NCBI GenBank assembly: GCA_047617585.1 | Contig: JBLGBD010000001.1 | Coordinates: 53,454 to 117,453, forward strand | Direction of reading: 5' to 3' | Length of the DNA: 64,000 nucleotides | Source: Pseudohongiellaceae bacterium | GTDB taxonomy: Bacteria; Pseudomonadota; Gammaproteobacteria; Pseudomonadales; Pseudohongiellaceae | Part shown: positions 55,897-60,000 of the stretch, piece after piece | Position numbering within the stretch: the first letter of the stretch is position 1 | Layout: every line of letters starts with the position of its first letter | Translations under genes and position numbers: made by a program | Notes under the pieces: generated by a model | Database searches by the model: none | What the model was told of the DNA's origin: nothing | What the model saw: the letters and a program-made list of their open reading frames with translations, nothing else

Positions 55897-56143
55897 CCGG
55901 GTTTCCTTTTAGATAGAGCTAATTGCTTGGCACTGGCGCCGAAGTGTCTCCTTGGTTAGCGCAGCTGTCAACAAGCGAGCCACTGACACTATTTCGGCTA
56001 ACGGCGTTATCAAAGCAGGGTGCGTTGCTACTGGGTTATGCGCTAGAGTTAGCCCAGATTGCGAATTAAGGCTTTGGCTGGCAGGCTATAATTGTCCGGC
56101 CGCATTTGTGTGATTTATTTGCTCATCAAGTAGGGTTCAATTC

Positions 56144-57370
56144 ATGGAAAGTATGATTAATCTCTCAGCTGTAACTTGGGCCTTAGTTGGCTTGATCGTG
56201 CTGCTGGGCGTCTATTTTCATGGTCCTAGCTACTCGATTCAAACAGTCAAAAATGCCCCGTCGATTCTTACAAGTTTCGGCATATTTGGGACATTTCTCG
56301 GCATCGCGTTTGGCTTAATGGGGTTTAATAGCGCGGACATTGAGGCCAGCGTGCCTTTGATGATCGACGGTTTGGGTGTCGCGGTTTGGTCTTCTATTTC
56401 AGGCATTCTTGCCGCGTTGAGCATACGTCTTCGGTATGCCATTAGCAGTGTGCGCAGCGCGAAACAGGCAGGCAGCAAGCTGGCTACGGTAAATGACCTC
56501 AACACATCGATTTTGGTACTAAATGATAATGTGGCGATGTTAAGGCAGGAGAACCTGGAGCAATCGACAAGTCTGTTGGCCGCCAACGAAAACTATCAGC
56601 AGCAAATGGTTGCGGCGAATACCGATGCCTTAACGACTGCGCTGAGCGGGATCATGCAAGATTTCAACAGCAAAATTGAAGTGCAATACGGTGAAAATTT
56701 CAAAGAGTTTAATGAGTCGTTGGGCAAGCTGTTGGCTTGGCAGCAAAGCTATTCCCAGCAGCTAAACGCGATGCTTGAAATGCATGACTCAAGCTTGAAG
56801 GTGATAGATAAAGCCGGTCAGTCATACCAAGAGATGATCGTCCATTCGCAAGAATTTTCAAAAATCGCAGGGTCTCTCGGCGAATTGTTGGCCGGTCTGG
56901 AGTCACAGACGCGCAACTTAGAGGGCTATCTTTCAGGTCTATCAGGCTTGGTTGGGCAAGCATCAGAAGGCCTACCTGCGTTGGGCGACTATGTTTCTGA
57001 ACTAACGGTTAAATTAAGCGAAAGCATAGAGCAAAACAATAAGAGCCTCACTCAGGTTCTTACCCAGGCATCCAAAGATATTACTAGTACCGTTGATGAG
57101 GTGAATCGGGGTTTGGCAGCATCTGTAGAGTCGGCGCACAGCGGTCTGGCTGAGCATGTAGCGGGGATGTCGAGTAAAACCCAGAAACAAATGGAAATTT
57201 TGGACAAGTCCATGGAGAAGCAGCTTAACCTCGCATTGCAAACCTTTGGCTATCAGTTAACCGCACTGTCAGAAAAGTTTGTCAATGACTATATTCCACT
57301 TACCGATCGCTTAAGAGACTTGGTTACGCTTGCTGAGCAGACTAAGGTTCACAAAGAGAAGGTGCGCTAG
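56144..57370 (+). CDS. MotA/ExbB-family proton-channel-like protein with a ~300-aa C-terminal helical tail (ZorA-like)
   Basis: Three TM helices lie in the first ~100 aa. The last two carry the MotA_ExbB core pattern (SFGIFGTFLGIAFGL and GLGVAVWSSISGILAAL). The rest is Leu/Gln/Ser/Glu-rich and helical (…LGELLAGLESQTRNLEGYLSGLSGLVGQ…). Confidence 0.65.
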   Translation: MESMINLSAVTWALVGLIVLLGVYFHGPSYSIQTVKNAPSILTSFGIFGTFLGIAFGLMGFNSADIEASVPLMIDGLGVAVWSSISGILAALSIRLRYAISSVRSAKQAGSKLATVNDLNTSILVLNDNVAMLRQENLEQSTSLLAANENYQQQMVAANTDALTTALSGIMQDFNSKIEVQYGENFKEFNESLGKLLAWQQSYSQQLNAMLEMHDSSLKVIDKAGQSYQEMIVHSQEFSKIAGSLGELLAGLESQTRNLEGYLSGLSGLVGQASEGLPALGDYVSELTVKLSESIEQNNKSLTQVLTQASKDITSTVDEVNRGLAASVESAHSGLAEHVAGMSSKTQKQMEILDKSMEKQLNLALQTFGYQLTALSEKFVNDYIPLTDRLRDLVTLAEQTKVHKEKVR

Positions 57371-58077
57371 TGACTGTGCTTGAGAACGAATTAGAGCAGG
57401 AGTCCGAAGAGCATTGGATTGCGGTAAGCGATTTGATGAGCGGCCTGATGATGCTATTTTTGCTAATTGCGGTTTTGTATATTGTGATTGTTGCGCGCCA
57501 AAAAGAAGAGATCGAACAAATAGTTCTACTCTATGAAGATTTGCGGGAAGAGCTATACCAAGATTTGCTGACCGAGTTTGAGCTCGATTTGCCGAGATGG
57601 GGTGCGCAGTTGAGCGAAGACCTAAGGCTTCGGTTTACCAATACCCAGCTTTTGTTTGAAGAAGGCGAATCTTATCTGCGGCCCGAATTTAGCGCAATTC
57701 TTGCTGATTTTTTCCCGCGTTATATGCGAATTTTAGCATCTGATACATACCGTGAAGATGTGTTGGAGGTTCGGATTGAAGGGCATACCTCAAGCTCTTG
57801 GTCCCAAGCGCTGGGCAGTGACGATGCCTATCTGCGCAACATGGCGCTGTCACAAGAGCGCACTAGGTCGACCTTAGGCACTATCCTGTCGCTTGCTGAA
57901 GTAGCGGACAATAAACAGTGGCTGCGCCAACGCTTAACAGCAAATGGCCTATCATCATCCCAGCTGATTGTTGGACCGGGGGGAGAAGAGGATCCCCAGC
58001 TTTCAAGAAGAGTCGAGTTTGTCGTTGTTACCGATGCAGAAACGAGACTGGCCACTATTATGCAAGAATTAAAGTAG
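57370..58077 (+). CDS. MotB/OmpA-like peptidoglycan-binding partner (ZorB-like)
   Basis: The GTG start overlaps the upstream stop (TAGTG). The N-terminal TM carries a conserved Asp (HWIAVSDLMSGLMMLFLLIAV). The C-terminal OmpA-like domain has VRIEGHTSS, NMALSQERTRS and SRRVEFVV. Confidence 0.7.
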   Translation: MTVLENELEQESEEHWIAVSDLMSGLMMLFLLIAVLYIVIVARQKEEIEQIVLLYEDLREELYQDLLTEFELDLPRWGAQLSEDLRLRFTNTQLLFEEGESYLRPEFSAILADFFPRYMRILASDTYREDVLEVRIEGHTSSSWSQALGSDDAYLRNMALSQERTRSTLGTILSLAEVADNKQWLRQRLTANGLSSSQLIVGPGGEEDPQLSRRVEFVVVTDAETRLATIMQELK

Positions 58078-58086
58078 CTCAGAGCA

Positions 58087-58677
58087 ATGAAGCTTGTAGA
58101 TTTCACAGAGTTTGCACCCTTTAACGAGCTGAGGCGCAAAGTAGGCACAACAACATTAGGTTACTTTGAGCTGTTTGATCCACAATTTCATTTGACTGGG
58201 TTAGAGCGCTCAGAGCTTGAGTTGAGCGGCCGTCTTGTAACCATTGATGGGATCAAAATTCTTCCCGATAAAACCCTGGCCGTTAAAAATAGCCGAGTGC
58301 TTGTGTACTACCCAGATGAGAATTGGTATAGAGACAACCGCGAATTCCCCACCTATCATCTTGCCTATTGCTCGCAGCTAGACGGGCTGGCGAAAGCCAT
58401 GCCCGATGCCCAGTGGTTAGCGACGACGAGGCTTGCGGAAGATTATGATTTAGTAAAGCTTAGAACCAGTGGCCAAGTGACACTGGTGTCCCATGGCTTT
58501 GCCGTGTGTAAGCATTGCTTGCACACACTGCGCTATAAAAACTTCGATGAATTTAGAAATCGCCGGCGAGGTTACAGCGAAACCGTACTGAAACAGTTTC
58601 GCCTAGGTGACTTTTTTAAGCTATATCAGCAATACCCACTCAGTTTTAAAGGCCGACCTAACACTGAAGATGGCTAG
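58087..58677 (+). CDS. Uncharacterised 196-aa cytoplasmic protein, third gene of the MotAB-like module, with a possible zinc-binding motif
   Basis: It starts 9 nt after the ZorB-like stop and has no TM helix or signal peptide. The motif is H91-x3-C95 ... C141-x2-C144-x-H146 (YHLAYC ... VCKHCLH). I recognise no nuclease, helicase or NTPase motif. Confidence 0.55.
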   Translation: MKLVDFTEFAPFNELRRKVGTTTLGYFELFDPQFHLTGLERSELELSGRLVTIDGIKILPDKTLAVKNSRVLVYYPDENWYRDNREFPTYHLAYCSQLDGLAKAMPDAQWLATTRLAEDYDLVKLRTSGQVTLVSHGFAVCKHCLHTLRYKNFDEFRNRRRGYSETVLKQFRLGDFFKLYQQYPLSFKGRPNTEDG

Positions 58678-58680
58678 GTT

Positions 58681-60000
58681 TTATTGGTCTAATTCGTTCA
58701 GCAGTGGCTCGGTGACGCCGTTAACTCCTGCGAGTGCCAGCATGACAAGAAAGGCTGTCTGCGGTCCAACATGAGACTCGGTTGGCACAAACCACTCGTC
58801 GGGTGAATGGGCGCCGCCGCCATTGCCGCCACCGGCTATAGTGATCGCGGGTATGCCCAGTGACATAGGCACGTTGGAATCCGTGCTGGATATGCCTAAG
58901 TCGCGTAGCTCAATGCCAAGGGCATCGAATGCCAAGGCCGTCACTTGAACGATTGGGCTGTCGGTTACTGTAGCGCCTACCGGACGATCTCCAATCAAGT
59001 TGAAATCTACTGTAATCTCGCCGTTGTTCCAACGGGCATTTTCTTCGGCAACCGCCTCCAGTGCGGCGGCTTTAATCTGGCTTTCAAGCCTGGCTAATTC
59101 GTCTGCGTCGTTGGAGCGCATGTCCAGAGCGAATATGGCATCGGCGGCGATGGAATTGACCGAGGTTCCGCCTTCGACTGTACCTACGGTATAGGTTGTT
59201 TTTGGCAGTGTCGGTGTTTCAATGTCGCCAATCTTGGCTATCGCTCTTCCCATGGCATGAATGGCACTAGCCAGACCAAAGGCACCAAAGGAATGTCCGC
59301 CAGGGCCTTTGAAGTGAAATTCGAAACGTCTGCTGCCCGTGCCGCCTGTGGTAATCCGCTGCAGGCGGACACCATCAATTGAAACGAAACCATCAATTTC
59401 TGGGTGGTCTCTAAAAATAGCCTTTATACCGCGCAGATCGCCTCGGCCTTCCTCACCCACGTTGCCGGCAAAGATAATATCGCCAATTGTTTCAAGACCG
59501 CTTTGATTTAAGGCATCGATCACGGAAAGCAGGGCGGCGAGGCCGCGTGTATCATCACCAATGCCGGGAGCATAATATCTGCCGTCGCGCAGCTGCACGG
59601 TTGTGTCTACTCCTTCTGGAAAGACGGTATCTAAGTGCGCCGCAATAAGAAAAGTTGGCCCCGAGCCGGTGCCTTTGCGAATGCCAATGGCATTGCCTTC
59701 GGTGTCAATGTAGGCGTCGACCAAGCCGCGCGCTTGCATCTGCTCTAAGAAATAAGCGGCTCTAACCTGTTCTTTAAACGGGGGTGCCGGAATTTCCGTA
59801 AGACGAAACTGTTCATCGATATAGGCAGGCTCTTGGGCTTCGATTAAATCTAGCATGGCCTTAACTGTGCTGTGCTCACTCAGAGTCGTGAAACTACTTG
59901 CTATGGAATCATCAATAGGAACAATCGACTGCTGGGCGCCAAGGCTTGCTGAATAGACCAATAAGATAGCCGCGAGTGGCAATTTGTTGAGTGAAAACAT
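58681..60000 (-). CDS. Secreted M20-family metallopeptidase
   Basis: Signal peptide plus the metal-ligand motifs AAHLDTVFPEG, GIGDDTRG and NVGEEGRGDLRG. Confidence 0.8.
   Translation of the reverse strand: MFSLNKLPLAAILLVYSASLGAQQSIVPIDDSIASSFTTLSEHSTVKAMLDLIEAQEPAYIDEQFRLTEIPAPPFKEQVRAAYFLEQMQARGLVDAYIDTEGNAIGIRKGTGSGPTFLIAAHLDTVFPEGVDTTVQLRDGRYYAPGIGDDTRGLAALLSVIDALNQSGLETIGDIIFAGNVGEEGRGDLRGIKAIFRDHPEIDGFVSIDGVRLQRITTGGTGSRRFEFHFKGPGGHSFGAFGLASAIHAMGRAIAKIGDIETPTLPKTTYTVGTVEGGTSVNSIAADAIFALDMRSNDADELARLESQIKAAALEAVAEENARWNNGEITVDFNLIGDRPVGATVTDSPIVQVTALAFDALGIELRDLGISSTDSNVPMSLGIPAITIAGGGNGGGAHSPDEWFVPTESHVGPQTAFLVMLALAGVNGVTEPLLNELDQ

Follow-up and report, generated by a model that had tools for sequence, protein, structure and literature searches.

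Can a Zorya motor work with a ZorE protein that has no nuclease? In published work, the HNH nickase ZorE is taken as the killing device of type II Zorya: upon infection of Escherichia coli, ZorAB recruits ZorE to the membrane and ZorE nicks DNA (Mariano et al. 2025, PMC11890865). E. coli ZorE is composed of a DUF8245 domain, an HNHc domain, and an optional C-terminal nuclease-like extension (bioRxiv 10.64898/2026.05.12.724681). The question is raised by a three-gene operon of a Pseudohongiellaceae bacterium, located in the stretch of 64,000 nucleotides that was analyzed here (contig JBLGBD010000001.1, positions 53,454 to 117,453; called the window, and numbered from its first nucleotide). We are confident that the open reading frame (ORF) at 58087-58677, the third gene of this operon and here named zorE-short, is the zorE of a type II Zorya-like operon and that it belongs to a lineage whose ZorE consists of DUF8245 only and lacks HNH. 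As to how the protein acts, the explanation that best accounts for the findings, and toward which we lean on balance, is that this DUF8245-only ZorE works without cutting.

A type II Zorya-like operon with a short third gene

The three genes and the gene that converges on them are the following.

zorA, 56144..57370, + strand: 408 amino acids, type II ZorA, a MotA-like channel with a coiled-coil tail
zorB, 57370..58077, + strand: 235 amino acids, type II ZorB, MotB-like, with an OmpA-type peptidoglycan-binding domain
zorE-short, 58087..58677, + strand: 196 amino acids, ATG to TAG, a DUF8245-only ZorE homolog without the HNH domain
M20/M28 peptidase gene, 58681-60000, convergent to zorE-short (Pfam, 1e-20)

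A reading of the window made from its letters alone (the sequence-only reading) had placed zorE-short third in a Zorya-type operon, and the two genes that precede it bear this out. ZorA matches the PADLOC ZorA2 profile PDLC00637 end to end (1.9e-87, over 5-400) and the type II ZorA of S. kujiense in PDB 8VVI (7.5e-42). ZorB matches the PADLOC ZorB2 profile PDLC00641 (1.2e-85), the ZorB of 8VVI (1.6e-48), and NCBIfam ZorB2 (NF041787, 3.3e-59, a match under the 400-bit equivalog cut-off), and its MotB-type aspartate, D21, is visible in the segment SDLM. Since both proteins are clearly homologous to those of 8VVI, the motor part is of a known kind. In the ZorA of the window, the first transmembrane helix lies close to the second and third, and the tail comprises ~300 residues. 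The trio is tightly packed: the start of zorB overlaps the stop of zorA by 1 nucleotide, and a spacer of 9 nucleotides precedes zorE-short.

The product of zorE-short is soluble by prediction; as the sequence-only reading had it, there is no transmembrane helix (the highest Kyte-Doolittle mean over 19 residues is 0.74) and no signal-like hydrophobic stretch visible at its N terminus. It matches four PADLOC ZorE2 profiles, the best being PDLC00643 at 8.9e-28, over profile positions 3-185 of 282 only. The match to the NCBIfam ZorE equivalog NF041791 reaches 28.2 bits against a cut-off of 600 bits and covers positions 85-171 of 358 only. PF26739 (DUF8245) is precomputed on all 120 homologs among the matches listed, down to 59% identity, and on all representatives of its clade that were looked up, down to ~30% identity. 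Pfam, NCBIfam, and PHROGs gave nothing useful except ZorE. Because H91 of zorE-short equals H90 in the DUF8245 domain of the E. coli protein, zorE-short corresponds to the N-terminal half of ZorE only. The sequence-only reading had considered a minimal zinc-finger effector in this position to be new; it is instead homologous to the N-terminal domain of a known HNH-type effector. As a separate observation, the short proteins of the window and of loci L045, L063, L065, and L067 match PADLOC PDLC00642-00646 over the first ~180 profile positions only.

What the protein lacks was also described correctly at the outset: there is no recognizable catalytic domain, with no Pfam match at E<=1, to HNH, another nuclease, or a helicase, and no sequence or fold match in the PDB. 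zorE-short ends where the HNH tail of long homologs starts, after residue ~187. With 3 cysteines in total, a second CxxC pair is impossible, and the beta-beta-alpha-metal motif of HNH and His-Me finger nucleases, with its catalytic His and Asn/His ligand, is not found in the protein. A PD-(D/E)xK triad is likewise absent, residues 65-67 being AVK, and has no structural match.

Because the ZorE2 profiles are described as "HNH endonuclease," automated annotation calls the short ZorE an HNH nuclease and its locus type II Zorya. Full-text literature searches returned no paper that addresses HNH-less ZorE or DUF8245-only proteins by title or abstract. A phylogeny from 2026 took in only ZorE variants with a recognizable endonuclease domain, and variants without one remain unstudied after their exclusion from that tree. 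The DUF8245 family is already in Pfam and the PADLOC profiles match it; what is new is the HNH-less ZorE variant.

Most short ZorE proteins form a clade of their own

HMMER, run exhaustively against 1.84 billion cluster representatives, returned 290 matches, from which 137 diverse representatives at the 50%-identity level, covering short and HNH-bearing forms, were aligned (mean column identity, 13%). The query and 71 others (72/137) stop no more than 45 residues past DUF8245. The other 65 continue, most of them into a tail with the HNH signature CxxC...HH.NG...N..LC..CH...H.H, and these long forms give weak Pfam HNH matches at ~215-260. A maximum-likelihood tree of the shared domain is split with 98% support in the Shimodaira-Hasegawa-like approximate likelihood ratio test. 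On the query's side stand 51 representatives, all short (152-230 amino acids); on the opposite side stand all 65 HNH-bearing forms and 21 scattered short sequences, which are probably fragments or recent losses. ZorB mirrors the split, with 52-58% identity to short-clade loci versus 36-44% to long-clade loci, and therefore the three genes evolved as a unit. A short ZorA tail was considered as a marker of the short-ZorE clade and rejected: ZorA has 378 amino acids in S. kujiense (PDB 8VVI) and 405-465, and also 665, in HNH-bearing loci, so that a ZorA as short as that of the window is normal for type II Zorya, and since HNH-bearing loci also carry ZorA proteins of 405-465 amino acids, the length of the tail is not tied to the loss of HNH.

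The gene is under constraint. Compared with its closest relative, at locus L001, zorE-short has a ratio of nonsynonymous to synonymous divergence (dN/dS) of 0.081 and a synonymous divergence (dS) of 0.43, the latter similar to those of zorA, zorB, and flanking housekeeping genes, and over 150 clusters, with identities down to 28-45%, keep the full-length domain. On the evidence of alignment and tree, the short-clade ZorE is an old, diverse, and widespread lineage that never carries HNH.

The stop codon of zorE-short (TAG, 58675-58677) is separated by 3 nucleotides from that of the peptidase gene (58681-58683), as had been noted from the sequence. The spacing is not conserved: it is ~11-160 nucleotides in relatives, or genes are inserted between the two. 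A consensus scan found no terminator-like site between zorE-short and the peptidase gene, and the count of such sites in the region is not above that in shuffled sequences. Truncation by the neighboring peptidase gene was rejected on conservation and the tree.

Predicted zinc site and fold

The following features of zorE-short bear on its possible function.

N-terminal motif MKLxDFxxFxPFNxLRxxMG (residues 1-20), 58087-58146, + strand: candidate segment for docking to the ZorA tail
H91-x3-C95, 58357-58371, + strand (H91 at 58357-58359, C95 at 58369-58371): first ligand pair of a predicted Cys3His zinc site
C141-x2-C144, then H146, 58507-58524, + strand: second ligand pair of the predicted zinc site
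Basic patch R157-N-R-R-R161, 58555-58569, + strand: specific to the HNH-less clade

The sequence-only reading had pointed to a split motif, H91-x3-C95 ... C141-x2-C144-x-H146 (YH91LAYC95 and VC141KHC144LH146), followed by the basic patch, and all of these residues are present. The protein has 5 histidines, and its only cysteines are C95, C141, and C144. Across the alignment of 137 representatives, which spans both clades, the only columns without variation are H91, C95, C141, and C144, so that loss of the Cys and His residues in orthologs was not seen; in this alignment, the motif is far beyond chance. The proposed site thus stands with four ligands and without its fifth residue: H146 is conserved in close relatives only (below 90% family-wide) and for this reason is not a general ligand. 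The His-Cys3 pattern is that of a Cys3His structural zinc site, and zorE-short is predicted to bind Zn2+. In an AlphaFold 3 model of E. coli ZorE, H90 lies in an N-terminal zinc site and DUF8245 next to DNA, and in E. coli Zorya II the H90A substitution abolishes defense (10.64898/2026.05.12.724681).

Several other residues are common to both clades: L3, F6, L15, R16, and M19 of the N-terminal motif (at least 76% conserved in both), as well as D61, T63, K67, R70, L145, F171, and Y180. F30, D31, E40, and the Arg patch are specific to the short clade, in which K67 is invariant and E40 94% conserved. Within the patch, R159 is conserved to 96% and R157 to 71% in the short clade, and the same columns are gapped in 92-97% of HNH-bearing ZorEs; the C-terminal segment, residues 151-196, has an isoelectric point of 9.9. 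The residues I75-R76-D77, R106, R109-Y110-V111, G118, and F120 are specific to the long clade and lost in the short one.

An AlphaFold 2 model built with 71 short-clade sequences has a predicted local distance difference test score (pLDDT) of 89.3 and a predicted template modeling score of 0.80, with lower pLDDT in helix 10-19. The secondary structure elements include helix 38-46, strands 49-52, 63-66, and 72-74, helix 78-83, and strand 89-91. H91 ends this last strand, C95 comes just before helix 96-104, and C141 and C144 are at the N terminus of helix 142-148. Fold searches of the PDB returned no match, neither to an unrelated housekeeping family nor to any treble-clef protein, the cysteines of the second pair being at a helix N terminus and H91 and C95 between a strand and a helix. 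PDB sequence searches with the single sequence and with the 137-sequence profile gave nothing below E=0.068, the value of the best profile match, a weak and local one to ribosomal protein S14 type Z at its zinc motif. This match is the only hint of the treble-clef-type zinc site with which the sequence-only reading had considered the spacing compatible. The model thus suggests a fold without a relative among solved structures, which would be held together by a predicted structural Zn2+.

Distribution and gene neighborhoods

In 50 genome loci, the ortholog lies directly after the zorB gene or a remnant of it wherever the upstream DNA sufficed, and ZorB is intact in 48 of them; orthologs away from MotAB-like pairs were not seen. 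In loci L039 (5609-5993) and L044 (6850-6993), zorE-short is intact but zorA and zorB are present as fragments only, and the sequence contains no runs of N; either the motor genes have decayed or the assembly is wrong. Forty-four of the loci belong to Pseudohongiella or other Pseudohongiellaceae, and in all 44 the trio occupies one syntenic site, between SURF1/CopD-like genes and M20/DUF1232 genes. In the window, too, its flanks are ordinary chromosomal genes, which encode SURF1, CopD-like membrane proteins, a heme/copper protein, the M20 peptidase, DUF1232, PI-PLC, and an aminotransferase, and the trio differs little from its neighbors in GC content.

zorE-short is present in 10 of 19 genomes of the same genus, 12 of 121 of the same family, and 8 of 400 of the class. 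Two genomes of the same genus have an empty site: in G110 (L076, 1269-1329) the M20 gene lies 60 bp from the upstream secreted-protein gene, and in G005 (L079, 9132-9199) it lies 67 bp from SURF1, the CopD-like genes being gone too. No other defense system was found at these two sites. Given the patchy presence, the shared site, and the clean empty sites, the module is dispensable, old at this site, and repeatedly lost. The trio has been inherited vertically, with clean losses and under purifying selection.

A nuclease that could stand in for the missing tail was sought. DUF8245 is encoded only once in the window's own genome, which is 84% complete. A split HNH partner was rejected: no ZorE-type HNH tail is encoded elsewhere in this genome, and its lone HNH ORF is generic, unlinked, and on another contig. 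There is no consistently linked nuclease gene near the short-clade zorE genes. One lineage only has an SNase-family gene ~1.4 kb downstream of zorE-short (L065:10013-10534 / L066:8639-9160), which is not conserved elsewhere.

Outside Pseudohongiella, two neighborhoods recur.

Loci linked to oxaloacetate decarboxylase genes (oad): L045:1972-4914, L047:1973-4940, L050:1811-4912, L065:1849-5211, L066:475-3837, L067:75-1247 (also L048 and L049)
Loci linked to bolA: L054:805-1128, L063:8694-9005, L068:3452-3763

Genes of the oxaloacetate decarboxylase Na+ pump immediately precede the short-clade trio, on the same strand, in at least five lineages outside Pseudohongiella. Reinekea, Saccharospirillum, and Aestuariirhabdus have oadA and oadB in this position; of two metagenomic lineages, one (L065/L066) has oadGAB and the other (L067) has oadB, its contig ending before oadA. 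ZorE identity among the oad-linked lineages is ~30-40%, and the arrangement may be ancient synteny or may reflect a functional tie to the Na+ cycle. oadB was not found in the window's own genome at its stated completeness, and an obligatory tie to oxaloacetate decarboxylase is rejected for this genome, which has the trio without oadB. In three further short-clade lineages, bolA and then a rhodanese/UPF0176 gene follow just downstream of zorE-short, which makes a second housekeeping neighborhood that is conserved.

Two ORFs of Pseudohongiellaceae border the trio. The first, a conserved ORF of ~280 amino acids (70-94% identity) with a hydrophobic, signal-peptide-like N terminus, lies just upstream of zorA and co-oriented with it in ~35 of the 44 loci (e.g., L004:4059-4901, L013:4043-4918, and L020:3126-3962). 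It has no Pfam or PADLOC match and is missing from the window (55897-56143) and its closest relatives. A paralog with 30% identity stands beside it in L020 and L042. The second, a fast-evolving ORF of 177 amino acids (45-64% identity), starts ~10-70 nucleotides past zorE-short on the same strand in 12 loci.

177-amino-acid ORF: L004:7588-8121, and in L011, L012, L013, L015, L020, L021, L026, L032, L033, L034, and L037

It has no Pfam or PADLOC match and a PHROG match of 0.055 only. The window lacks this ORF; in some species it could serve as a fourth, accessory gene. Because both ORFs are absent from the window, neither is an obligatory partner, and both were rejected as the missing effector.

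How a ZorE without HNH might act

The explanation toward which we lean, a ZorE that acts without cutting, can be drawn out in two forms. That zorE-short is a non-catalytic binder or adaptor is a plausible mechanism, which we put forward tentatively. What it retains of ZorE would be the portion responsible for docking to the motor and for contact with nucleic acid. Its conserved N-terminal helix would dock onto the ZorA tail of the activated ZorAB motor, and nucleic acid would be bound via the surface of DUF8245 together with the Arg patch, which is specific to the clade and may have been added in place of the DNA contacts of HNH. The protein would then hold or block incoming DNA at the membrane or pass it to a factor encoded elsewhere, a role nearer to that of ZorC of type I Zorya, a DNA-binding non-nuclease, than to that of a nickase. 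The bolder form, which seems rather unlikely to us, is a rotary motor without any nuclease, in which the DUF8245-only ZorE couples the ZorA tail to nucleic acid or a cellular target with a mechanical, steric, or signaling effect.

Four points weigh against a ZorE that acts without cutting. First, the short clade has not kept I75, R76, D77, R109, Y110, and F120, residues that HNH-bearing ZorEs conserve, and with this loss the DUF8245 surface may have changed function. Second, a nuclease-free ZorE is without experimental precedent: in E. coli, substitution of the catalytic His of HNH (H226A) abolishes defense with DUF8245 intact, and both domains are required (10.64898/2026.05.12.724681). Third, the chromosomal, housekeeping-type context in several lineages is atypical for defense systems. 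Fourth, because the window's own genome is incomplete, a partner gene elsewhere could be missed.

The third of these points leads to the alternative that fares best, namely, that the trio is a domesticated non-defense module, a chromosomally fixed, envelope- or ion-driven signaling device that would, for example, couple the state of the membrane or of ions to DNA or to some other target. The fixed site among housekeeping genes across Pseudohongiellaceae, a dS equal to that of the flanks, the similar GC content, and flanks that contain no mobile-element or defense-island genes where examined are all consistent with such a device, and the repeated linkage to oadGAB (at least five lineages) and bolA (three) hints at a domesticated cellular function as an alternative to immunity. 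However, the patchy distribution (10/19 in the genus, 8/400 in the class) and the clean empty sites show the module to be dispensable in the way of defense genes, the window's genome has the trio without oadB, so that a tie to Oad is not obligatory, and all three proteins are clear homologs of an experimentally validated defense system. We therefore consider domestication unlikely.

Less probable still is a cryptic nuclease, in which DUF8245 itself would cut DNA, via a cluster of E40, D61, K67, and R70 or via a His-metal site at H91. D61, T63, K67, and R70 are shared by the two clades as conserved residues, the short clade holds K67 and E40 especially well, and the order of secondary structure elements fits an alpha-beta-beta-beta-alpha-beta core that loosely resembles PD-(D/E)xK. 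This proposal must contend with the A-V-K at residues 65-67, where no (D/E)xK is present, with the lack of any match in Pfam, in PHROGs, or by fold or motif, and with the E. coli H226A mutant, which is defenseless despite its intact DUF8245; moreover, the four invariant residues, one His and three Cys, are a classic signature of structural zinc. Finally, a decaying remnant, a ZorE losing its 3' half by deletion and heading for loss, might be suggested by the length of the protein relative to canonical ZorE, the stop that abuts the neighboring gene, the 21 scattered short sequences in the HNH-bearing clade, and the damaged zorAB of L039 and L044, but it is effectively refuted by a dN/dS of 0.08, the conservation of the full-length domain in more than 150 clusters, the exclusively short clade of 51 representatives, the invariant zinc ligands, and the Arg patch, which is a gained feature.

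Significance

About half of the DUF8245 representatives at 50% identity (72/137) have no HNH, and 51 of them form a coherent clade always found with ZorAB, a difference that the automated labels ("ZorE, HNH endonuclease" and type II Zorya) hide. The HNH-less loci are natural experiments on the role of DUF8245, be it tail docking, DNA binding, or another, and they bear on nuclease-free protection by the ZorAB motor and on the domestication of Zorya relatives. If a nuclease-free motor is true, the short clade would count as a Zorya subtype of its own, and it would show what DUF8245 truly does in every ZorE. The question can be tested directly, since there are cultivable hosts such as Reinekea blandensis MED297 and Saccharospirillum spp.

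Comparison with known systems

Like the ZorE of E. coli ATCC 8739 and EDL933, zorE-short is the third gene after a type II zorA-zorB pair, and its product shares with E. coli ZorE the N-terminal DUF8245 domain of ~185 residues, the same His-Cys3 site, and the N-terminal MKLxDF...LRxxMG segment. Unlike E. coli ZorE, it has neither the HNHc domain (H226, N234, H235, H247, and H253 in E. coli) nor the C-terminal extension, and relative to HNH-bearing ZorEs it gains the R157-R161 patch and loses the IRD, RYV, and F120 motifs. The ZorA5B2 motor of S. kujiense (PDB 8VVI) has a ZorA of 378 amino acids versus 408 in the window, and the structure contains no ZorE. Ribosomal protein uS14 type Z (PDB 5MYJ chain AN) resembles the family over ~45 residues (kfKlCRiCLReLaYKG versus the family consensus lkVCknCLqkLkYkg, with CxxC at a helix N terminus); at E=0.068 and with no fold-level match, this likeness is a hint of a zinc knuckle and not of homology.

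The DNA-binding protein ZorC and the nuclease ZorD of type I Zorya are recruited by the ZorA tail as it rotates (Hu et al. 2024, PMC11946911). ZorC is unlike zorE-short in sequence (no PADLOC ZorC match at E<=1), and it acts with ZorD, whereas the zorE-short locus encodes no such partner. An analogy of function only is possible, in that zorE-short, like ZorC, may be a soluble protein that the ZorA tail recruits and that binds DNA without being a nuclease.

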